From NCBI GenBank assembly GCA_964430885.1, contig CAYSHM010000011.1:85384-95667 (forward strand): a stretch of 10,284 nt of DNA, given 5' to 3'. Below are positions 1 through 9,932 of the stretch, piece after piece. A program made the translations under genes and the position numbers. The notes under the pieces were generated by a model. The model ran no database searches, was not told where the DNA came from, and saw only the letters and a list, made by a program, of their open reading frames with translations. Source of the DNA: an uncultured archaeon. GTDB taxonomy: Archaea; Thermoplasmatota; Penumbrarchaeia; JASLWR01. Within the stretch, counting starts at the first letter, position 1. Each line of letters opens with the position of its first letter.

Positions 1-1962
1 TTCACTCTGTGGACCATACCTGATTCTGATACTATCAAGAATTATATGGAGGAAAATGAACCAAAATCCGCGGTTGTCATAGGGGGAGGTTTCATAGGTC
101 TTGAAATGGCGGAAAATCTCATTGCCCAAGGATTGAACGTTACCATTGTGGAAATGCTGGATCAGGTATGTCCCCCCTTGGATTCCGAGATGGCATCAAT
201 AATCCATTCTCACATAGCTGCCTCTGGTTGCAGGCTCCATCTTTCAGATGCGGTCCAGTCCTTCCACAAAGAGGATGGTCAAACAGTTGTTACTACAAAG
301 AGCGGTGCTGAATTGAAATGTGATATGGTCATCCTATCCATTGGAGTTAAACCCAATAACGACCTGTCCCAGAAGGCAGGACTGGAAATGGGTGACAGGG
401 GTGGGATCAAGACCGATGAACATATGTGTACCTCAGTGTTAGACATATACTCAGCTGGAGATGTTGTTGAGGTGACCGATTATGTATCCGGTCAACCGGC
501 AATGATTCCTCTAGCAGGTCCGGCCAATAAGCAGGGGCGCATTGTCGCGGATAATATATTCGGAAGGGACTCGGTCTTCAAGGGAACTCAAGCATCCTGC
601 GTGGTCAAGGTCTTTGATATGACGGTGGCATGCACCGGGAACAATGCCAAGATACTTGACCGGTATGGTATCCCGTATATTTATTCATATACTGAATCCG
701 GTTCTCATGCTTCATATTATCCTGGAGCCCAAATGATGAATCTCAAGCTACTGTTCAGTCCGGAGGATGGTAAAATTCTAGGAGCCCAAATTGTCGGTAT
801 GGAGGGTGCAGATAAGCGTATCGATGTACTGGCTACAGCTATAAGGGCAGGTATGACAGTGTACGACCTTGAAGAACTCGAGCTGGCCTATGCTCCACCT
901 TACTCCTCGGCTAAGGACCCTGTGAATATGGCTGGATTTGTTGCAAGCAACATCCTGCGCGGGGATGTTGAGAATATCCACTGGTACGAAATGGATTCTT
1001 TGGATATGGATGCCAATGTGCTGTTGGATGTACGTGACGACGAGGAACTAGAGATGAACCCATCTATCGATGGCTCGATCCAGATTCCCCTGAATCAGTT
1101 GCGGAAACGTCTGATTGAATTGGATAAGACCAAGACCTACATAATCTACTGTGCAATGGGTCAGCGAGGCTATATTGCCTACAGAATGCTAAGACAGAAC
1201 GGTTTCAATTGTAAGAATCTAAGCGGAGGCTATCATATTTATATGGCACCAAGGGCGGAACTGAAGGTGCCGGCCGCCCTTCCATCTATGATGGGTATGG
1301 TTCCCGAATCGGATGATGTTCATTTTGATCATATGGTGAACGCCTGCGGGGTGCCATGCCCAGGTCCCATAATGAAGCTCAGTAAGAAGATGGGCGAGAT
1401 GGAAGATGGAAAAGTACTGAAGATAACTGCTTCAGACAGAGGTTTTGCTTCGGATGTTCCGGGCTGGTGCGAGAAAAGCGGAAACCAGCTTTTATCCCTG
1501 AGTTCCGACAAGGGGATCTATACGGCAATAATCAGCAAGGGGAGGATAAGAGCCCCATGCGAAGGATTGGATACAGTTTATGATGAAGAGGAAGAAGGTG
1601 AATATATGGTGAACAAAACAGCAATAACAATAAACAGTTCGAAGGCGAAGGACCTGTTCCCCGCTTTCATACTGGCATCCAGCGCTGCCGCTTCAGGGGA
1701 AGAAGTTATACTCTATTTCACCCCCAACGCGGCCTCTGCACTGAAGAAGGGCGTGCTGGAGAGCATGGAGATGAAGGGTATGCCCAATATGGAGGATCTG
1801 GTGGAGGGCGTGGTATTCATGGATGGGCGTTTCCTGTTGTGCGAACTGGCTTTGAAGACGGGAGAGCTGACTGCGGAGGAATTGAGAGAAGAGGTGGAAG
1901 TGGTGGGGGTTACCACCTTTGTAATTGCTGCAGCGGGAGCGAAGATGACCTTTTCCTTCTGA
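1..1962 (+). CDS. CoA-disulfide/persulfide reductase (Cdr/Npsr family flavoprotein) fused to rhodanese, TusA and DsrE-like domains; 5'-partial
   Basis: Frame 1 is open from base 1 (FTLWTIPDSDTIK, resembling the FTLRxxxD segment that precedes the NAD(P)H-binding fold), so the ATG at 46 is internal and the N-terminal FAD-binding/catalytic-Cys region lies upstream of the window. Motifs: VVIGGGFIGLEMAE (NAD(P)H binding), TSxxDIYSAGD (FAD), PLAGPANKQG, ELAYAPPYSSAKDPVN (CoADR dimerisation domain). Then rhodanese (~970-1245; LLDVR, IIYCAMGQRG with Cys at 1150, NLSGG), TusA (~1327-1542; CGVPCPGP, DVPGWC) and a DsrE-like domain (1606-1959; LLCELAL with Cys at 1840). Confidence 0.92.
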   Translation, partial: FTLWTIPDSDTIKNYMEENEPKSAVVIGGGFIGLEMAENLIAQGLNVTIVEMLDQVCPPLDSEMASIIHSHIAASGCRLHLSDAVQSFHKEDGQTVVTTKSGAELKCDMVILSIGVKPNNDLSQKAGLEMGDRGGIKTDEHMCTSVLDIYSAGDVVEVTDYVSGQPAMIPLAGPANKQGRIVADNIFGRDSVFKGTQASCVVKVFDMTVACTGNNAKILDRYGIPYIYSYTESGSHASYYPGAQMMNLKLLFSPEDGKILGAQIVGMEGADKRIDVLATAIRAGMTVYDLEELELAYAPPYSSAKDPVNMAGFVASNILRGDVENIHWYEMDSLDMDANVLLDVRDDEELEMNPSIDGSIQIPLNQLRKRLIELDKTKTYIIYCAMGQRGYIAYRMLRQNGFNCKNLSGGYHIYMAPRAELKVPAALPSMMGMVPESDDVHFDHMVNACGVPCPGPIMKLSKKMGEMEDGKVLKITASDRGFASDVPGWCEKSGNQLLSLSSDKGIYTAIISKGRIRAPCEGLDTVYDEEEEGEYMVNKTAITINSSKAKDLFPAFILASSAAASGEEVILYFTPNAASALKKGVLESMEMKGMPNMEDLVEGVVFMDGRFLLCELALKTGELTAEELREEVEVVGVTTFVIAAAGAKMTFSF

Positions 1963-2044
1963 AGATACAAGCTCAATATAAAACCGATGTGGTTGACCAT
2001 ATTATCTGATTATGGTAAGACTGATAACAAGAAATGAATTGTGT

Positions 2045-2049
2045 GGTGA
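2045..2049 (+). promoter_or_regulatory. Ribosome-binding site GGTGA for tusA
   Basis: GGTGA lies 6 nt before ATG 2056, and the same motif recurs before the next two genes. Confidence 0.7.
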
Positions 2050-2055
2050 AAAAAA

Positions 2056-2286
2056 ATGACAAAAATAGATAAGAAACTGGACTGTAAGGGGCTGTCATGT
2101 CCCATGCCGATCTTAAAGCTGGCCAAGACCATGAAGGCCATGAATGGCGGAGAAGTGTTGGAAATGCAGGGTACTGATCCCGGTTCAAAATCGGATGTGC
2201 CCGCATGGTGCAAGAAGATGGGCCACAAGTTCCTAGGATTGAAAGAGGAGTCAGGCGTCAATAAATTCTATATTCAGCATAAATGA
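2056..2286 (+). CDS. tusA: TusA/SirA/YedF-family sulfur carrier protein
   Basis: 76 aa with LDCKGLSCPMP (CPxP motif, Cys at 2098), GEVLE, TDPGSKSDVPAWC and a C-terminal FYIQHK strand. GGTGA at 2045-2049 lies upstream of the ATG. Confidence 0.93.
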   Translation: MTKIDKKLDCKGLSCPMPILKLAKTMKAMNGGEVLEMQGTDPGSKSDVPAWCKKMGHKFLGLKEESGVNKFYIQHK

Positions 2287-2399
2287 TATGTATTTATGTA
2301 TGATCCATTGGAAGGCAGTTGTGCCTGGGATATCTGAAGAAATTAAAGGAGATGGAATCCTTTTTCGCAGCAGTATTCCTTTGTTTCAATGTTGATCCA

Positions 2400-2431
2400 G
2401 TTATAAATAATGTGTATAAAAATTTAAAAAT
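2400..2431 (+). promoter_or_regulatory. Possible AT-rich TATA-type promoter region upstream of the transporter and multi-rhodanese genes
   Basis: TTATAAATAA (2401-2410), TATAAAAA and TTTAAAAA in the 158-nt gap after tusA. No start site can be verified. Confidence 0.3.
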
Positions 2432-2433
2432 AG

Positions 2434-2440
2434 CAGGTGA
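2434..2440 (+). promoter_or_regulatory. Ribosome-binding site CAGGTGA for the YeeE/YedE gene
   Basis: Lies 4 nt before ATG 2445. Confidence 0.7.
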
Positions 2441-2444
2441 AAAT

Positions 2445-3794
2445 ATGCCGAATTTAAGTAAAAACAGTTTGGACGAGTCCGATATCGAAGAGGGAGTAGA
2501 TAATCTCGATGATGATGAAGTCCCAGACTTTGATAATGTTGTTCCCGATTTCGGAGATGACGAGGTTCCGGATTTTGGTGAGGTTAAACTGACCGATTCA
2601 GGAACTGATGAAGGAAAAGAGCAGGGTATTCTATCAGAGCTCTACTGCAGGTTATTCGGAAGCTCGTGGGAAATGTGGTTGGGAAGCATTCTTCTGGCCA
2701 CACTGAGCATTTGTCTTTTCGTGATCTCATCTCCATGGGGTTCCAGCGGGGGTCTTGTGAACTGGGGTGACAATCTGTTTGGAGTTTTGGGTGCCTCATT
2801 CGGAAAGGAAGCTGTCGATATAGTTGATAACAAGTATGCAATGCTGTCTCTGTTAATGCTGATAGGGGCTTTTGGAGCCGCTCTTATGAGCAAGGAGTTT
2901 TCGGTTAGGGTTTCCCCTATACCGGAACTTGGAAAAGGTATTTTCGGCGGTCTACTTATGGGTTTGGGCTGCGTTCTGGGAATGGGATGTACTGTTGGAA
3001 ATTTCTTTAGCGGATTTGCGGCCTTGTCAGGCGGTGCAATTGTATTTGTTATCGGCCTCTTGATAGGAGTTTTCCTAGCGGTAAAATATCTACTTTGGGA
3101 AATGGAGAAGCATCCGAACTGGAGTTCCGGCAAGTCCTGGACATTTCTGAAACCTAAAACTGAAGGCAGGTCACTTCAGCCCTTAATAGGAGTTGTGGTC
3201 CTTCTCCTTGGAGGAGCTTTGGCTTTGACCTATGATGCTGCAGCTGAAAAGGTCCTCATTGGTTTTGTCTTGATAGGTCTGCTTATAGGTATAATACTTC
3301 AGCGCTCCCGATGGTGCATAGTAAGAGCTCTCAGGGAGACCTTTATGACTGGTGACGCCACGCCTACCATGGCAATAATAGCTGGAATAGTAGTAGGTAC
3401 AATAGGATTCACTACAATAAAGGCAATGGGTATCAGAAGCGAGATGACAATGGTTGCTGCGAACTTCTGGGTGCCGGCAATAGTAGGTGGAATCATATTC
3501 GGTTTCGGTATGACCATTGCCGGGGGCTGCACAGTAGGTTCTACCTGGAGGGCGGCAGAAGGACATGTTAAGCTCTGGTTCTCCCTTTTGGGAATAGTGA
3601 TAGCAGGCCCGCTTACAGCGGAATACATCAAACCCGAATTCCTGGATATGCTGCCTGCTTCAATGAACAAACAGGTGTTCCTTCCGGAACACTTCACTTA
3701 CACAGGTTCGTTCATCATTATGATGCTGATACTTCTGTTATGGTACATATTTGTGAACTGGAACGAACGGACGGGGAAATTATCAGCTTTGTAG
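2445..3794 (+). CDS. YeeE/YedE-family sulfur/selenium-compound transporter (YedE/FdhT-type half order) with acidic N-terminal extension
   Basis: Many Gly-rich hydrophobic helices. Family motifs: GGLLMGLGCVLGMGCTVG (Cys 2988), GIILQRSRWC (Cys 3315), GGIIFGFGMTIAGGCTVGSTWRAAEG (Cys 3528). Start moved from the TTG at 2319 to the ATG at 2445 because CAGGTGA (2434-2440) precedes it and the stretch just upstream is AT-rich and intergenic-like. Confidence 0.9.
   Translation: MPNLSKNSLDESDIEEGVDNLDDDEVPDFDNVVPDFGDDEVPDFGEVKLTDSGTDEGKEQGILSELYCRLFGSSWEMWLGSILLATLSICLFVISSPWGSSGGLVNWGDNLFGVLGASFGKEAVDIVDNKYAMLSLLMLIGAFGAALMSKEFSVRVSPIPELGKGIFGGLLMGLGCVLGMGCTVGNFFSGFAALSGGAIVFVIGLLIGVFLAVKYLLWEMEKHPNWSSGKSWTFLKPKTEGRSLQPLIGVVVLLLGGALALTYDAAAEKVLIGFVLIGLLIGIILQRSRWCIVRALRETFMTGDATPTMAIIAGIVVGTIGFTTIKAMGIRSEMTMVAANFWVPAIVGGIIFGFGMTIAGGCTVGSTWRAAEGHVKLWFSLLGIVIAGPLTAEYIKPEFLDMLPASMNKQVFLPEHFTYTGSFIIMMLILLLWYIFVNWNERTGKLSAL
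2508..2585 (+). repeat. Three in-frame acidic VPDF peptide repeats (DDDEVPDF-DNVVPDFG-DDEVPDFG)
   Basis: VPDF is encoded at 2520-2531 (GTCCCAGACTTT), 2541-2552 (GTTCCCGATTTC) and 2565-2576 (GTTCCGGATTTT). Confidence 0.85.
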
Positions 3795-3802
3795 AGGGGT
3801 GA
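3795..3802 (+). promoter_or_regulatory. Ribosome-binding site AGGGGTGA for the multi-rhodanese gene
   Basis: Directly follows the transporter's TAG (3792-3794) and lies 6 nt before ATG 3809. The 14-nt gap between genes suggests co-transcription. Confidence 0.7.
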
Positions 3803-3808
3803 AATGAT

Positions 3809-6800
3809 ATGACAAAAGAAGATAAGATAATCACAGTTGTTTGTGTAATAGCTTTGATCGCATCCGTAATTCTTTTCTCCTTCATAGATACAGAAGGGGA
3901 CGGGAACAAGAAGGCGGATATCACAGAAGCCGAGGGAATGCTAGGTGCAACACGTTCATTCCTTTCATCAGGAAAAAATACCATGGTAACTGCAGAGGCT
4001 CTATATGCCAATCTCAACGACGGTTATTCCGGAAACGATCCCTTTATACTCAGCGTTAGAGGTGAAGAAGAATATGCAAAGGGTCATATTCCGGGCGCAG
4101 TGAACATACCTTGGAGAAGTGTTTTTACCGAGGACAACATCAGTAAATTACCCAAGAACAAGGAGATAGTTGTCTACTGCTACACAGGTCATACGGCCAG
4201 CCAGATCACTGCACTATTGAATATGGATGGATATGATGCGGTCTGTTTGAAATGGGGAATGTGCTCATGGACCACAAATGCCTCAGTTACAAAGGATATG
4301 TACTATACGCCGCCTTCTGTAGGCTACAAGACCATCTCCGGCAGTCAGCCGGGAGTTTGGTCTGGAACTAGATGCGGCGGTGATGAACCTGCTCCTGCAG
4401 CGGTTGGTGAAGATATTTCGGGGACGGAAGATGTTGACCTTAGAGGTGACATACATAATTATCTTGCATCCGGCAAATCACCAGCAATATCTGCTGGTGT
4501 CCTATACGATAATCTGAACGACGGTGACAGTTCCAATGATCCCTTTATTCTAAGTATTCGTTCCGCTGCTCAATATGAAATAGGTCATATACCTGGAGCA
4601 GTGAATATTGGATTCAAATCCCTTTTCACCGATGATAATATCTCAAAGCTTCCTGAGGATAAACAGATAGTCGTAGTATGCTACACTGGCCACACAGCCA
4701 GCCAGGCCACGGCACTTCTGAATGTGAATGGATATGATGCCATAGCCCTTAAGTTTGGAATGACGGGCTGGTCCTCAAATTCCACAGTAGCGCCTTCGGC
4801 TTTTGTGAAGGCTACGGCAGCTCACAACTATGAGATATCCCTTGGAAATGAAACTGGAGATATGGAAACAGCGGTTATAGCAGATACATCTGAGGTCATA
4901 CTAACAGCCACCCAGGATTTCCTGAAAGCGGGGAAATCCACGATGATAACCGCGGAAGCGCTCTACAACAACCTGAACGATAACTACGCTGGAAACGATC
5001 CCTTTGTCCTCAGCATCAGGAGTCCCGAGCAGTACGCAATCGGGCACATCCCTGGGGCAGTGAACATACCTTACAGGAGTGTTTTCACTGATGAGAACAT
5101 ATCCATGCTTTCAGAACAAACTGGGAACAAGGATGTTGTTGTGGTATGCTACACAGGTCACACGGCCAGCCAGGTTACAGCAATGCTGAATGTGCTGGGA
5201 TTCAACGCACAATGCCTCAAGTGGGGAATGTGTTCTTGGACAACCAACACCACAGTAGCTCCTAGCCATTATACCGCACCTACTAACGATTATCCTGTTG
5301 CAGCTGGCCCCTCACCGGGCTCCTGGCCGGCTTCAGGGACTAGACAGTGCGGCGGGGACGATACGGAGGGCGGAGGAGTTGAGGAAGATGCGCTGGCAGG
5401 TTCTGTATTCGATATAGTCAGGCCAGCCTGTAATAACTATCTTGCAGAAGGTAAAGCGCCTGCTACTTCCGCATCATCACTCAATGAGGTCCTGAATGAC
5501 GGTAATGACACCAACGATCCATATCTCTTGAGCATTCGTTCCTCATCTCAGTATGATATAGGACATATTCCAGGCGCAGTGAACATAGGTTTTACCTCAC
5601 TTTTCGATGAGGACAAACTTTCCATGCTGCCTACAGACAGGCAGATAATTGTGATCTGTTATACAGGACATACAGCCAGTCAAGCTACGGCTCTCCTAAA
5701 CATAAATGGGTATGATGCCATCGCCCTGAAATGGGGTATGACTGGCTGGACGTCTGATGCAGTTGTAGCTCCATCTGCATATAATAGGGATACTGCGGCA
5801 ATGAACTATCCGGTGGTCATGGGTGATCTGCCTGGGGGGATGGACGAGGGAATTATAGCTGACCCAGATGCCCAGGTAATCGATGCTACCAATGCATTTC
5901 TTTCCGCCGGCAAAGGGACCATGATAACTGCTGAAGCCCTATATTCGAACTTGAATGACGGATATTCTGGCAACGATCCATTTATCCTTTCAGTGAGAAG
6001 TGAAGAGCAGTATGCCAAGGGGCACATTCCCGGAGCAGCCAATATACCCTGGACGAAGGTATTTACCGAGGAAAACATTTCCAAACTACCCATGAACAAG
6101 GATATTATAGTATATTGTTATACTGGCCACACTGCCAGCCAGGTTACAGCCATGCTTAATGTGATGGGATATGATGCATTATGCCTGAAATGGGGTATGT
6201 GCTCATGGACATCGGACACCGCTATAGCACCTTCATGCTACCAGCCGCCTGCAATGGACTATCCAGTTGCTTCGGGTGATGATCCGGGAGCTTGGACCCG
6301 TACCCGGCAGTGCGGAGGAGAAACCGGAGATGGTAGCGGCGGAACCGAAATGGTTGGCGGAACCTCTACTGAAGTCATTAGGAAAACATGCAATAATTAT
6401 CTCATGGAAGGTAAACCCCCTGCAGTATCAGCTTCATCCCTCTATGAAAGATTGGAGGATAACGACACTGGAAATGATCCTTTTGTACTCAGTATCAGAA
6501 GCTCCGCTCAGTATTCATTAGGACACATTCCCGGAGCAGTTAATATTGGCATGAGCGGTTTGTTCGAGAAGGAGAACCTTTCAAAATTGCCCGCTGATGA
6601 TCAGCAGATAGTTGTGGTATGCTACACAGGCCACACTGCCAGCCAGGCTACGGCACTACTCAACATCAATGGTTACAACGCTACCGCTCTGAAATGGGGT
6701 ATGACTGGCTGGACCTCCAATGCTACTGTGGCCCCCTCAGCTTATGACCGTGCATCAGCCTGCTTTAATTATCCGGTCGTGATAGGTGAAAATGCCGGGA

Positions 6801-8743
6801 CCATGGAAGAAGGCATTATCGCTGACACAGCAGATGTGATACTTGAAGCTACCAATGGATTTTTATCTTCTGGGGGCAACGCCATGATAACCGCCGAAGC
6901 TCTATATGCTAACTTGAATGACGGGTATTCCGGCAACGATCCTTTTATCCTGAGCATACGAAGTCAAAGCGCTTATGAGGGCGGGCATATTCCTGGAGCG
7001 GTCAATATTCCGTATTCCAGTGTTTTCACTGAGGAGAACATTTCCGCCCTGCCGACAGATAAACCGATCGTGGTCTACTGCTTCACTGGCCATACTGCAA
7101 GTCAGGCCACAGCTATGCTCAACGTTCTTGGTTTCGATGCAGTATGCCTGAAGTGGGGAATGTGCTCCTGGACGACTAACACCACAGTTGCTCCTTCCTG
7201 CTATGATCCAAATACAGTAGAGGATAGGCAGGTTATTTCAGGCTCCGAACCGGGTACATGGACACGCACTAGACAATGCGGGGGCGAGATTGGAGAGGGT
7301 GGGACAGTAGAAGCAGTTTCAGGATCTGTTTTCGACATAACAAGGGCTGCATGTAATAACTATATGGCGGAGGGCAAACCTCCTGCCAAATCCGCAGCGG
7401 ACATCGAGTCTCTTCTGGATGACGGAGATCCCGGAAACGATCCCTTTGTGCTCAGTATTCGTTCCTCTGCCCAGTATGCTATTGGACATATTCCTGGAGC
7501 AATAAATATTGGCATGTCCGATCTATTTACTGAGGAAAATATGGCCTTGCTGCCGGACGATGATACATTGATAGTAGTGGTGTGTTATACTGGACATACA
7601 GCCAGCCAGGCCACGGCGCTTCTCAACATCAACGGATATAATGCCACTGCACTGAAATGGGGAATGACGGGCTGGACCACGAATTCAACAGTGGCTCCTT
7701 CCGCTTACCAGAGAGGCAGCGCATGCCATAATTATCCTGTTATGGTCGGTTCCGAAGCTGGATATCTGGATGGAGCCGAACTCGTGGCTCCGACAGATGA
7801 GGAGATAATCCTTGAGGCGTCAAGCACGTATCTGGAGGGCGGTGCCAAGTTCATCACGGCTGATAGTCTTTATTCCAACCTAGATGACGGCAATAGCTCC
7901 AACGATCCCTTTATCCTAAGCATTAGGAATTCTGCTGATTATGTATTGGGCCATATACCCGGAGCGGTCAACATACCCTGGAAAAGCTTATTCTCAGTGG
8001 GGAATCTCTCACTTCTGCCCCAGAACGACACACAGGTGGTTGTAGTTTGCTATACTGGTCAGACTGCAAGCCAGATCACCGCACTTCTTAATGTGCTGGG
8101 ATTCAATGCATCCGCCCTTAAACACGGTATGTGTTCCTGGACCACCAATACTACTGTGGCACCCAGTTGCTTCAATAACACAACTCACCAGAACTCCTAT
8201 CCCACAGTAGAGGGGAATACTAGGGACGGCTGTGGAGGCGAAGGAGGTTCCGGCGGAACCTATGAGGGCAGTGCAGATGAATGGGAGATGCTGAGGCAGA
8301 GCTGCGAGCGGTATGTGAACGAAGTGGATACGATGTATATTACTGCCGAGGCTTTGTATGCCAACCTCAACGACGGTTACGGCAATAATGACCCATATAT
8401 CATCAGTATTCGAGGTTCAGCAGATTATCAGGTTGGGCATATAGAGGGCGCTGTCAACATACCGGCTGGAAGCATATTTTCGGAAGAGTTTCTATCGGAT
8501 CTCCCCATGGATAGGCCGATAGTTGTCTACTGCTATACTGGTCAGGGGGCGTGTCACGTTGCGGCTCTCCTGAACCTCAACGGCTACGACGCCCTGTCCC
8601 TGAAATGGGGAATGTGTTCTTGGACCGACAACTCCACAGTGAACATGAACAAGTGCTATGACTCAGCTACCTCTGGACATAATTACCCCGTTTACGTTGG
8701 CGGGGAGGTTGGAACTTGGGAAGAAGGTGTTGAGGTAGCCTGA
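3809..8743 (+). CDS. Large membrane-anchored or secreted multi-rhodanese (sulfurtransferase) protein with 10 tandem domains
   Basis: N-terminal charged residues plus a hydrophobic helix (IITVVCVIALIASVILFSF). Then ten copies of NDP-F/Y-x-LS/IS-I/V-R ... GHI(P/E)GAxNI ... C(Y/F)TG(H/Q)xA ... LKxGMxxW, which correspond to the rhodanese GHIPGA, active-site-loop and LxGGxxxW motifs. Catalytic Cys codons are at 4178, 4679, 5147, 5657, 6116, 6620, 7079, 7583, 8048 and 8531. GGGGTGA at 3796-3802 precedes the ATG. Confidence 0.93.
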   Translation: MTKEDKIITVVCVIALIASVILFSFIDTEGDGNKKADITEAEGMLGATRSFLSSGKNTMVTAEALYANLNDGYSGNDPFILSVRGEEEYAKGHIPGAVNIPWRSVFTEDNISKLPKNKEIVVYCYTGHTASQITALLNMDGYDAVCLKWGMCSWTTNASVTKDMYYTPPSVGYKTISGSQPGVWSGTRCGGDEPAPAAVGEDISGTEDVDLRGDIHNYLASGKSPAISAGVLYDNLNDGDSSNDPFILSIRSAAQYEIGHIPGAVNIGFKSLFTDDNISKLPEDKQIVVVCYTGHTASQATALLNVNGYDAIALKFGMTGWSSNSTVAPSAFVKATAAHNYEISLGNETGDMETAVIADTSEVILTATQDFLKAGKSTMITAEALYNNLNDNYAGNDPFVLSIRSPEQYAIGHIPGAVNIPYRSVFTDENISMLSEQTGNKDVVVVCYTGHTASQVTAMLNVLGFNAQCLKWGMCSWTTNTTVAPSHYTAPTNDYPVAAGPSPGSWPASGTRQCGGDDTEGGGVEEDALAGSVFDIVRPACNNYLAEGKAPATSASSLNEVLNDGNDTNDPYLLSIRSSSQYDIGHIPGAVNIGFTSLFDEDKLSMLPTDRQIIVICYTGHTASQATALLNINGYDAIALKWGMTGWTSDAVVAPSAYNRDTAAMNYPVVMGDLPGGMDEGIIADPDAQVIDATNAFLSAGKGTMITAEALYSNLNDGYSGNDPFILSVRSEEQYAKGHIPGAANIPWTKVFTEENISKLPMNKDIIVYCYTGHTASQVTAMLNVMGYDALCLKWGMCSWTSDTAIAPSCYQPPAMDYPVASGDDPGAWTRTRQCGGETGDGSGGTEMVGGTSTEVIRKTCNNYLMEGKPPAVSASSLYERLEDNDTGNDPFVLSIRSSAQYSLGHIPGAVNIGMSGLFEKENLSKLPADDQQIVVVCYTGHTASQATALLNINGYNATALKWGMTGWTSNATVAPSAYDRASACFNYPVVIGENAGTMEEGIIADTADVILEATNGFLSSGGNAMITAEALYANLNDGYSGNDPFILSIRSQSAYEGGHIPGAVNIPYSSVFTEENISALPTDKPIVVYCFTGHTASQATAMLNVLGFDAVCLKWGMCSWTTNTTVAPSCYDPNTVEDRQVISGSEPGTWTRTRQCGGEIGEGGTVEAVSGSVFDITRAACNNYMAEGKPPAKSAADIESLLDDGDPGNDPFVLSIRSSAQYAIGHIPGAINIGMSDLFTEENMALLPDDDTLIVVVCYTGHTASQATALLNINGYNATALKWGMTGWTTNSTVAPSAYQRGSACHNYPVMVGSEAGYLDGAELVAPTDEEIILEASSTYLEGGAKFITADSLYSNLDDGNSSNDPFILSIRNSADYVLGHIPGAVNIPWKSLFSVGNLSLLPQNDTQVVVVCYTGQTASQITALLNVLGFNASALKHGMCSWTTNTTVAPSCFNNTTHQNSYPTVEGNTRDGCGGEGGSGGTYEGSADEWEMLRQSCERYVNEVDTMYITAEALYANLNDGYGNNDPYIISIRGSADYQVGHIEGAVNIPAGSIFSEEFLSDLPMDRPIVVYCYTGQGACHVAALLNLNGYDALSLKWGMCSWTDNSTVNMNKCYDSATSGHNYPVYVGGEVGTWEEGVEVA
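3938..8740 (+). repeat. Intragenic tandem repeat: five two-domain units with a period of about 950-980 nt
   Basis: Spacings between successive catalytic Cys codons alternate: 501, 468, 510, 459, 504, 459, 504, 465, 483 nt. One exact DNA match is CTGAAATGGGGTATGACTGGCTGGAC at 5726-5751 and 6689-6714, 963 nt apart. Boundaries are approximate. Confidence 0.9.
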
Positions 8744-8757
8744 ACCAAACCAAATAT

Positions 8758-8783
8758 GGGGGTTTAAACCGCCCCCTTTTTTT
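8758..8783 (+). terminator. Probable transcription terminator (GC stem-loop followed by T7)
   Basis: GGGGG(8758-62)-TTTAAACCG-CCCCC(8772-76)-TTTTTTT(8777-83), starting 15 nt after the stop codon of the multi-rhodanese gene. Confidence 0.7.
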
Positions 8784-8939: not shown

Positions 8940-9932
8940 ATGGGACGGAATCGGAGTATTGATCAGTTCAGAGGCGTCGCCATTGTTTCAATGGTATTCT
9001 TCACAATGACCCTTAAGCTCAGTTCAGATCTGCCCGAACTACTTAAGCACAATGTCCCTGGCTCAGTCCATGTAGGGGATTTTGTCCTACCTATGTTTTT
9101 GTTTGCCAGTGGATTATCATTGGCGTACTACTTTGAGAATAATTTATCGAGAGGATCTCTTTGCAGCAGCAGTGCTCTTAAGGATATTATTGGACGTTTT
9201 ATCAAATTGGCATTTATTGGACTATCACTATCTTATTTCTCTGCATACCGACTCCTTGAAATGGACGAGGTCATGTTAAGCGCCATTTGTTTCTTGGCAT
9301 GTATATTCCTGTCTAGATTTAAATGGAAATTTGGTTTATTAATTATAATTCTTATCAACCTTTCTTATCTATTGCTCATCAAATTTGATCACACCTATAT
9401 TTTTTCACAACACTATCTTGGAGGATATCTATCAGTCCCCTATTATCTGCCGATTATGTTAAGCGGTTTTTTTGTAGGTCAGGATATGATCCTCAGAAGT
9501 GAAATGAATCATCTGACAGCTTCAACGAATAATGCCTCTGAAAACCCCATATCTGCAAATAATCTTTTATTAATGGTAGGAGTTATGGTTCTTTTTCTTC
9601 TATCCATGCTATTTGCCCAATTGGACAAGTTAACGGCTTCACCTTCATTTATGATGCTATCGATTTTGGTTTCTTTCTTTCTGTATATCGCATTTATTAA
9701 ATTCAAACTAAGTAATCCCATCGCTGCGCAGATAGAGTATATTGGTAAAAATCCCCTCCGTTTTTGGGTAATGATGTACGTGCTGCTGATCATCCCTGGA
9801 ATTATATATGTCAAAACTAAAGATGGCTCTTTCCCTCTTGAAATACCGTGGCTTGCAGGAATTACTATCAGCTCGGCAGCTATTTTTTTATTATGGAGTA
9901 TGTCAAAATTGGTCGATAGACTGAAGGATTAA
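8940..9932 (+). CDS. HGSNAT-like (heparan-alpha-glucosaminide N-acetyltransferase / DUF1624-type) multi-pass membrane acyltransferase
   Basis: N-terminal RNRSIDQFRG (RxxSxDxxRG motif), then LKHNVPGSVHVGDFVLPMFLFASGLS, which matches the H..G...D.V.P.FLF..G.S motif, followed by many hydrophobic segments. The ATG at 8940 is preferred over the TTG at 8898 because the family motif begins right after it. Confidence 0.75.
   Translation: MGRNRSIDQFRGVAIVSMVFFTMTLKLSSDLPELLKHNVPGSVHVGDFVLPMFLFASGLSLAYYFENNLSRGSLCSSSALKDIIGRFIKLAFIGLSLSYFSAYRLLEMDEVMLSAICFLACIFLSRFKWKFGLLIIILINLSYLLLIKFDHTYIFSQHYLGGYLSVPYYLPIMLSGFFVGQDMILRSEMNHLTASTNNASENPISANNLLLMVGVMVLFLLSMLFAQLDKLTASPSFMMLSILVSFFLYIAFIKFKLSNPIAAQIEYIGKNPLRFWVMMYVLLIIPGIIYVKTKDGSFPLEIPWLAGITISSAAIFLLWSMSKLVDRLKD

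Follow-up and report, generated by a model that had tools for sequence, protein, structure and literature searches.

The terminal 10,284 bases of contig C11 in an archaeal genome of 3.13 Mb and 91.6% completeness (G000), which are the whole stretch analysed here and are called the window below, carry four genes encoding a CoADR-rhodanese-TusA-DsrE reductase, a stand-alone TusA, a YedE-type channel of the Sulf_transp family and an N-anchored protein with ten rhodanese domains (the deca-rhodanese). We lean towards reading this cluster as an outside-to-inside relay for sulfane sulfur, with a cytoplasmic NAD(P)H-dependent persulfide reductase at its inner end. To this reading we give slightly better than an even chance, and within it we infer the substrate, the direction, the order of hand-off and the physiological role. 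In this analysis it rests on the domains and catalytic residues present, on synteny and natural fusions, and on indications of topology.

In the proposed mechanism, the deca-rhodanese, held at the outer face of the membrane by its one N-terminal helix, would load sulfane sulfur as cysteine persulfides on ten sites, drawing on polysulfide, elemental sulfur or thiosulfate. The membrane-proximal rhodanese domain would hand the sulfur to the YedE-type channel, where three invariant cysteines would line the path, and the cytoplasmic TusA would receive it from the channel. From there the sulfur would reach enzyme-bound CoA by way of the TusA, DsrE and rhodanese domains that are joined to the CoADR core, and the FAD/Cys centre would reduce the persulfide to H2S with NAD(P)H. 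The net effect would be a sink for reducing equivalents, together with control of internal reactive sulfur, in a fermentative archaeon of marine sediment or water.

Four plus-strand open reading frames (ORFs) occupy positions 1–8743 of the window. An initial annotation made from the sequence had described four adjacent co-directional sulfur-handling genes with totals of 11 rhodanese, 2 TusA and 1 DsrE domains, and the Pfam search agreed with both the run of genes and the totals. The coordinates of the features are collected in Table 1.

The deca-rhodanese contains the motif C[YF]TG[HQ][TG]A in all ten domains, with the catalytic cysteines at residues 124, 291, 447, 617, 770, 938, 1091, 1259, 1414, and 1575. 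A rhodanese carries its catalytic cysteine in a six-residue loop and is free of the CX5R phosphatase signature; judged by Pfam match, cysteine and structural model, the ten domains are rhodanese sulfurtransferases. The odd-numbered domains d1–d7 are mutually 66–70% identical and the even-numbered domains d2–d8 are 63–73% identical, and two divergent domains follow. Tandem Repeats Finder detected no DNA-level repeat in the window, and the ten domains, with 44–73% identity, are therefore old duplications. All ten catalytic cysteines are kept in four of four full-length orthologues (those of G002, G010, and G014 among them), and both catalytic cysteines are invariant across 32 of 32 aligned two-domain AB units. 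An AlphaFold model of AB unit 1 had a predicted local distance difference test score (pLDDT) of 87.2 and a predicted template modelling score of 0.86, with a disordered linker (pLDDT < 50), and single modelled domains resemble single-domain rhodaneses, the TM-scores with 3FOJ and 3MZZ, normalised to the target, being 0.81–0.83. The classical two-lobed tandem rhodanese (1RHD and 1URH; bovine rhodanese and SseA), in which only the C-terminal domain is active, was considered for the AB unit and found no support, since both cysteines are kept, the superposition is poor (TM-score of about 0.3, root-mean-square deviation of 15–20 Å) and the linker has the low pLDDT given above. The linker of the archaeal units contains a conserved cysteine (TRCGG or TRQCGG; window positions 4370–4380 and the equivalent sites), which the bacterial two-domain homologues lack.

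A location of the rhodanese array outside the cell is supported by indications of topology, namely the single N-terminal helix, the lipoprotein or signal N-termini of the bacterial homologues, and the fusions of rhodaneses to multihaem cytochrome c or PKD domains that are described below. The attachment of c-type haem occurs outside the cytoplasm. The deca-rhodanese has 25 N-glycosylation sequons, compared with 17.1 ± 3.7 in shuffled sequences, which is a weak hint only. A complex prediction pairing residues 60–448 of the channel with residues 1–345 of the rhodanese protein returned no answer (score 0.00, mark 0.32) and is evidence neither way. Two proteins with a rhodanese fold, Sud of Wolinella and SbdP of Aquifex, bind sulfur from polysulfide and supply a sulfur reductase with it; both are single-domain, soluble proteins serving membrane molybdoenzymes. 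The surface array probably works like these two proteins, neither of which is named among the 25 PDB sequence matches of the AB unit.

The YedE-type channel is the product of the only Sulf_transp gene in G000. Its start is likelier to be the ATG at 2445, which lies behind AGGTGA, than the TTG at 2319. Its match to Pfam Sulf_transp (PF04143) falls into two stretches, with the model's C-terminal half ahead of the N-terminal half, and a hydropathy scan indicated about nine hydrophobic helices. All 10 of the aligned sequences keep the cysteines C181, C290, and C361, which align with QRGRIC, AGGCASG, and AGGCNIG of the solved YeeE structure 6LEO, the halves being in swapped order. The Pfam match and these cysteines bear out the earlier proposal of a three-cysteine YeeE/YedE channel. 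Among the curated NCBIfam models, YedE/FdhT (NF033796) is colinear with the channel and gave 155.1 bits against a cut-off of 350, and the TsuA model (NF041049) gave 78.5 bits against 645; both scores fall below the cut-offs. The acidic, repeat-like N-terminal extension with its DDEVPDFG motifs (window 2445–2640) varies in sequence among the orthologues and is missing from L025. The channel gene of G002 changes frame between its acidic N-terminal part (L015 13373–13879) and the rest (12429–13553), which may reflect a frameshift or a misassembly of the repeats. The ATG of the neighbouring TusA gene is preceded by GGTGA. The TusA protein matches the Pfam family and has its cysteine in the C-P-x-P loop, and the NCBIfam TusA equivalog model gave 61 against a cut-off of 78, which is below the cut-off, alongside weak matches to YedF.

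The ORF at the 5' end of the window matches Pfam Pyr_redox_2, Pyr_redox, Pyr_redox_dim, Rhodanese, TusA, and DrsE_2/DsrE, so that the domain content named in the initial annotation was right. The gene itself, however, extends beyond the window: upstream, across a scaffold gap, lie its first 149 codons, with the redox-cysteine motif SYANCGLPYY (read from the translated piece). The upstream region was analysed as the extended locus L001, which consists of the window plus upstream sequence and in which position 1556 is window base 56. The gap of 100 N (within L001 1284–1500, just upstream of window base 1) has an identical 55 bases on both edges, and it is an overlap of two contig ends inside the reductase gene and no real break. 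Matching DNA was found in four sequencing runs of one marine-metagenome study, two of which are possible sources of this DNA, and contigs of runs X1, X2, and X3 were compared. A contig of run X3 crosses the gap, its ten extra letters past the left edge being the sequence to the right of the duplicated 55 bases; the reductase gene is therefore continuous and encodes about 784 amino acids. The orthologue in G002 is intact, with 787 amino acids.

The best PDB match of the G002 orthologue was the Bacillus anthracis CoADR-RHD (3ICR, E 1.7e-193), followed by the Shewanella Npsr (3NTA) and the CoA-persulfide reductase 8A56. In the orthologue alignment, the redox-cysteine motif coincides with SFANCGLPYY of 3ICR, and IIYCAMGQRG in the rhodanese domain (residues 337–412) with the cysteine loop of 3ICR. 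TIGR03385 gave 335.8 bits on the truncated piece, the cut-off for the full-length protein being 578.8. DrsE_2 (33.8 bits, cut-off 25) and DsrE (27.0 bits, cut-off 22.7) were both detected, and the LLCELA cysteine of the DsrE domain recurs in the stand-alone DsrE proteins of L020, L021, L022, and L023. With the fold domains, the redox cysteine and a rhodanese tail carrying its cysteine, the protein is predicted to belong with the CoADR-RHD, Npsr and CoA-persulfide reductases, as the initial annotation had held; 3ICR, 3NTA, and 8A56 are its closest solved relatives. Npsr enzymes reduce persulfides and polysulfide using NADH (PMC7969121; this and the other papers cited here are drawn on as excerpts). 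A second CoADR-rhodanese-TusA paralogue of G000, on contig C3 (120914–122866), is 36% identical and has no DsrE domain.

Conservation of gene order was examined in related genomes and more widely. Full-length deca-rhodanese orthologues with 67–71% identity occur within the same arrangement of genes in G002, of the same family, and in G010 and G014, of another family, and fragments of deca-rhodanese genes lie at contig ends in G008 and G005. The order in G002, namely HTH_10, reductase, TusA, YedE, deca-rhodanese, and a HGSNAT-like gene, is identical to that of the window and its upstream sequence. A search with a YedE alignment found 244 relatives in species-representative genomes, of which the best 80 loci (15 archaeal and 65 bacterial) were scanned with hidden Markov models built from our own alignments. 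Where upstream sequence is available among these 80, the YedE-type gene has TusA directly upstream at 12 of 13 loci in archaea and 57 of 57 in bacteria. Of the loci with 1.5 kb or more of downstream sequence, 9 of 11 in archaea and 42 of 52 in bacteria have a rhodanese ORF that starts no more than 1 kb downstream of YedE; the two archaeal loci without one are labelled Heimdallarchaeota and Hodarchaeota. The bacterial rhodanese ORFs mostly have lipoprotein or signal-peptide-like N-termini. Thermoplasmatota loci have arrays of 3, 4, 6, or 10 rhodanese domains beside TusA and a Sulf_transp gene, and Clostridia and Dehalococcoidales have secreted two-domain rhodaneses beside the same two genes. 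The initial annotation had suggested a survey of co-occurrence and synteny as a check, and the linkage of TusA, YedE and rhodanese does recur in archaea and many anaerobic bacteria.

Natural fusions were found among 50 long relatives examined from a collection of 5.8 billion proteins. Five of the 50 (P0165 and P0168–P0171) are single chains in which Sulf_transp is followed by a loop rich in lysine and arginine, a transmembrane helix, and 2–4 rhodaneses, in this order. In P0165, the C-terminus of the channel leads into a loop with seven lysine and arginine residues, a helix like the anchor of the deca-rhodanese, and then the rhodaneses, of which only the first, membrane-proximal one retains the catalytic cysteine as read from the sequence. 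Because loops rich in lysine and arginine are cytoplasmic according to the positive-inside rule, the loop of P0165 would be cytoplasmic and its array outside. Three further proteins (P0166, P0167, and P0174, one of them with PKD domains) are multihaem cytochromes c fused to rhodaneses, and one (P0137, 2327 amino acids) has 16 rhodanese stretches.

The cytoplasmic end of the system varies. CoADR-type genes with rhodanese and TusA domains are in or next to the cluster at six archaeal loci (the window, G002, L022, L024, L053/L133, and L137). A stand-alone DsrE gene precedes TusA in L021, L022, and L023, and a DsrE gene or domain accompanies TusA at many archaeal loci. Among the best 80 loci, DsrE-TusA-MvhD(FlpD) is combined with two HdrA-like genes at 3 of the 15 archaeal and 30 of the 65 bacterial ones, and an HdrA/MvhD-type neighbourhood occurs at 25 of the 40 bacterial loci for which 6 kb or more is available on one side; bacterial loci with this arrangement include L069, L073, L075, L076, L078, L081–L084, and L091–L094. 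The HdrA-like proteins score far below the HdrA cut-offs and below all NCBIfam cut-offs. No HdrA/MvhD-type module was found in G000. In Bacteroidales, Cloacimonadota, Zixibacteria and others, the genes run TusA, YedE, 1–3 lipoprotein rhodaneses, TusA, MvhD, and two HdrA-like genes. That a cytoplasmic redox partner is always close but varies in kind fits a constant import module feeding interchangeable reductases. The initial annotation had taken the whole relay as one unit. This stood for the transporter, TusA and the exported rhodanese array, which form one conserved module, but not for the CoADR-type reductase, which is an interchangeable accessory.

The host, known from a marine metagenome, is an archaeon of the non-methanogenic Thermoplasmatota. 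Upstream on the contig are genes for aIF5A, ribosomal proteins S13, S4, and S11, RNA polymerase subunit D, mevalonate kinase, and HypA/D/E (named from N-terminal sequences), and related public loci are labelled Thermoplasmata, Thermoplasmatales or Methanomassiliicoccales archaeon. A methanogenic host or one of the anaerobic methanotrophic archaea (ANME) was considered and dropped, as no McrA was found in G000. This and the other genome-level negatives (SelD, NrfD/PsrC, and DsrA) are limited by the 91.6% completeness of the genome. Neither NrfD/PsrC nor DsrA was found in G000, which has one molybdopterin oxidoreductase only and a single [NiFe] hydrogenase large subunit. The negative result for NrfD/PsrC fits the earlier suggestion that the pathway needs no molybdenum polysulfide reductase.

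Several observations weigh against the relay as a dedicated route of sulfur reduction. Cytoplasmic NAD(P)H-driven reduction conserves by itself no energy. The module is rare and patchy, with a strong match in 6 of 37 genomes of the class, and in 12 of 401 genomes and 10 of 162 genera of the sampled phylum. The intergenic spacings in the cluster, 93 nt and about 158 nt, do not imply co-transcription. Among curated families, the channel comes closest to the selenium-linked YedE/FdhT. The CoADR-type gene is missing from many homologous clusters and divergently oriented in L022, and the interchangeability of the reductase belongs among these points. The four-domain fusion is widespread among bacteria, with at least 975 relatives at E ≤ 1e-10 among 8000 candidates scored. 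Runs X1 and X2 contain a junction contig in which L001 1555 is followed by 1723, so that 167 nt (window 56–222) are skipped out of frame, the path with the deletion having a depth of 6.1 compared with 9.3 for the full-length path in X1, and 3.8 compared with 10.3 in X2. Part of the population may thus carry a frameshifted, broken reductase in which the NAD(P)H-binding region is hit. According to the paper on the A. fulgidus Npsr, this type of enzyme gives no S0 respiration and may be protective (PMC7969121), and the four-domain reductase BF638R_0572 known from Bacteroides fragilis is tied to thiol/disulfide balance (PMC6158253). Our confidence stays near one half because of the deletion variant, the interchangeable reductases, the frequent occurrence of the four-domain reductase outside such clusters and the perhaps protective role of Npsr.

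Among the alternatives, the one that survives best, possible though in our view doubtful, is that the relay serves assimilation and trafficking. Imported sulfane sulfur or thiosulfate would then load TusA for thiolated tRNA, molybdenum cofactor and Fe-S clusters, and the CoADR fusion would clear surplus persulfide. YeeE/TsuA with YeeD/TsuB is a thiosulfate importer in assimilatory sulfur metabolism, and TusA has been described as a central hub for sulfur (PMC11582611). The CoADR fusion of B. fragilis has been linked to redox homeostasis (PMC6158253), and the deletion in the reductase gene in part of the population and the single Sulf_transp gene of the genome also speak for this role. However, a ten-site array that is intact in all four orthologues, the DsrE domain and the adjacent flavoenzyme reductases point to a high flux and not to a trace supply. 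Sulfide is the usual sulfur source of anaerobic archaea and is abundant in such habitats, which counts against assimilation as well.

It is improbable that the import module feeds sulfur disproportionation or oxidation, as has been proposed for the bacterial YTD (YedE-TusA-DsrE) cluster. YedE, TusA and DsrE are the core of that cluster, which is a candidate marker of sulfur disproportionation, and the proteins were more abundant during thiosulfate disproportionation (PMC9751629, PMC12998232). DsrA, however, was not found in the genome, the attached enzyme is a relative of reductases, and the conserved hypothetical genes of the Chp type were not seen in the window, as judged from its ORFs and with no direct search for Chp sequences.

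Still less probable is a flux from inside to outside, in which cytoplasmic sulfane sulfur would be exported and parked on, or released by, the surface rhodaneses for detoxification or for donation to partners. The direction is unreadable from sequence, and transfers by rhodanese and TusA are reversible in principle, both of which leave room for this reading. In contrast, the cytoplasmic reductase would already dispose of persulfide as H2S, a sulfide-oxidising source of sulfane sulfur was neither sought nor found, and the characterised relatives, namely TsuA, SoxT1A and zero-valent sulfur transporters, import their substrates (PMC11582611).

An uptake of selenium by the module is unlikely and carries scarcely any weight with us: YedE/YedF pairs are linked to selenium metabolism, rhodaneses can carry selenium, among NCBIfam models the channel scores highest with the YedE/FdhT "selenium metabolism membrane protein" (155 bits) and TusA weakly matches YedF, but the channel is far below the curated cut-off (155 against 350), SelD exceeded its cut-off in none of six cluster-bearing Thermoplasmatota genomes (G000, G002, G010, G014, G081, and G231) with E. 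coli and M. jannaschii as positive controls, and the neighbours are sulfur-relay and persulfide-reductase genes.

Table 1. Features of the window, listed from the array and its partners to the neighbouring elements
Feature	Position	Strand	Basis
N-anchored deca-rhodanese, 1644 amino acids, (A-B)x4 then two divergent domains	3809..8743	+	Pfam, ten stretches, 533 bits
Sole hydrophobic helix of the deca-rhodanese, residues 7–25, signal anchor	3827..3883	+	Hydropathy scan
YedE-type Sulf_transp channel, about 449 amino acids, acidic low-complexity N-terminal extension	2445..3794	+	Pfam, 143.7 bits against 27
Stand-alone TusA-family sulfur carrier, 76 amino acids, Cys in LSCPMP	2056..2286	+	Pfam TusA, 87.3 bits against 28.6
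CoADR-rhodanese-TusA-DsrE reductase gene, 3' 653 codons	1..1962	+	Pfam and NCBIfam; open at the 5' end of the window
HGSNAT_cat/Acyl_transf_3-like polytopic membrane protein, fifth gene	8940..9932	+	Pfam HGSNAT_cat, 35.8 bits against 22
G+C hairpin then seven T, 3' of the rhodanese gene, putative terminator	8758..8783	+	Sequence scan

Further elements adjoin the four genes. The fifth gene had no NCBIfam match, and its 196 relatives are unnamed or called "predicted acyltransferase". Its loci were collected by an alignment search, a single-protein search having given one distant locus only. The gene lies 3' of the rhodanese gene in G002, G010, G014, G008 and others. A rhodanese array is present at 7 of 9 Thermoplasmatota-type loci of this gene family, compared with 0 of 26 loci that are Micrarchaeota-labelled or from unclassified archaea, where the gene occurs without any relay genes. 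The fifth gene is a conserved member of the cluster in Thermoplasmatota.

At the other end, a gene for an HTH_10 regulator precedes the reductase gene. The near-palindrome CCGAACATATTCGG occurs twice between these two genes in G000 (L001 786–799 and 850–863), with a chance expectation in L001 of 0.02, and once, as an exact copy, in the matching intergenic region of G002 (L015 16755–16768). We regard it as a candidate operator of the HTH_10 regulator. The hairpin behind the rhodanese gene was located where the initial annotation had placed a terminator closing the cluster. The call is of the bacterial type, however, and its meaning is uncertain because the host is an archaeon. The result of a sigma-70 promoter scan was set aside for the same reason.

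The recurrence of the module also allows a wider proposal, which we put forward tentatively and consider doubtful. The multi-rhodanese array, which has 10 domains in the window and as many as 16 in one relative, might act as a persulfide-hopping "sulfur wire" that stretches out from the membrane as far as solid or colloidal sulfur and relays sulfane sulfur between successive sites down to the cysteine-lined channel. Together with interchangeable reductases of the CoADR or HdrA/MvhD type, it might constitute a widespread molybdenum-independent form of cytoplasmic sulfur reduction in Thermoplasmatota, Asgard-labelled archaea and anaerobic bacteria (Bacteroidales, Cloacimonadota, Fermentibacteria, and Zixibacteria).

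How anaerobes seize poorly soluble zero-valent sulfur and move it across the membrane is a largely unsolved problem, and the non-methanogenic Thermoplasmatota are common in anoxic sediments while their energy metabolism is unclear. A preprint on non-methanogenic Thermoplasmata discussed an action of Hdr/Mvh on an unknown sulfur compound, and its excerpted text does not mention rhodanese (10.1101/2020.03.09.984617). The cluster provides a testable parts list, consisting of a ten-site surface array, a three-cysteine channel, small cytoplasmic carriers and a soluble reductase, and the natural channel-rhodanese fusions are ready constructs for studies of structure and transport. The import module is found widely among uncultured anaerobic bacteria, beside uncharacterised HdrA/MvhD-type flavoproteins, which hints at a sulfur-reduction route overlooked by surveys keyed to Psr, Dsr or sulfhydrogenase genes. 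The main value of the analysis lies in a testable model of sulfur uptake and in the pointer to a broader uncharacterised YedE-rhodanese-HdrA/MvhD system in anaerobes.

The claim in the initial annotation that the combination was undescribed proved too strong. The four-domain reductase is known from B. fragilis (PMC6158253), and for Desulfurivibrio dismutans a relay from periplasmic lipoprotein rhodaneses through YeeE/YedE to TusA has been proposed, with co-localised genes and a secreted three-rhodanese protein (PMC12142623). Our literature searches, which covered main texts and not supplementary tables, found no description of an archaeal multi-rhodanese surface protein or of such a cluster. 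The archaeal ten-domain array, the fusions, the fifth conserved gene and the candidate operator are new.

Comparison with the known systems places each part of the cluster. The reductase resembles CoADR-RHD, Npsr and CoAPR (3ICR, 3NTA, and 8A56) as well as BF638R_0572 in its fold, redox-cysteine motif and cysteine-bearing rhodanese tail, and it shares the extra TusA and DsrE domains with BF638R_0572. In contrast to the cluster gene, the known CoADR-RHD and Npsr enzymes and BF638R_0572 stand alone or in regulons for stress or reactive sulfur species, and none of the descriptions of CoADR-RHD/Npsr examined places the enzyme beside an exported rhodanese array and a YedE channel. The import of sulfur by YeeE/YedE proteins with TusA-like partners, and by SoxT for oxidation, is established or proposed (PMC11582611). 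The channel is like YeeE(TsuA)-YeeD(TsuB) (6LEO and 8J4C) and SoxT1A in combining a three-cysteine Sulf_transp channel with an adjacent gene for a TusA-like cytoplasmic partner, and it differs from YeeE/TsuA in the swapped halves of the YedE type, the acidic N-terminal extension and the added extracytoplasmic rhodanese partner. The trio of YedE-related protein, TusA and DsrE is shared with the YTD cluster, which has 2–3 Chp genes in addition; the present cluster has no further small conserved ORFs and has a rhodanese array and a reductase instead. In the excerpted account, the complete YTD cluster is reported only from Desulfobacterota and Nitrospirota (PMC12998232).

The closest counterparts are the system of D. 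dismutans and the clusters of candidate phyla, in which genes for a Pmp/YeeE-type transporter and sulfurtransferases occur together and one transporter-sulfurtransferase fusion is reported (PMC9324843). In both, as in the window, exported or lipoprotein rhodaneses are encoded beside YeeE/YedE channels and would pass sulfur to cytoplasmic carriers. Those systems, as far as the excerpts of the two papers describe them, are bacterial, tied to Psr/Phs molybdoenzymes and Dsr-based oxidation, and proposed from genomes and proteomes (PMC12142623, PMC9324843). The present cluster differs from them in its archaeal host, in which Psr and Dsr were not found, and in its ten active domains, its YedE order of halves and its CoADR-type reductase. 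The cluster is an archaeal version of a sulfur-relay design that has been proposed for bacteria, and its own features are the ten-site surface array and the terminal enzyme of the CoADR type.

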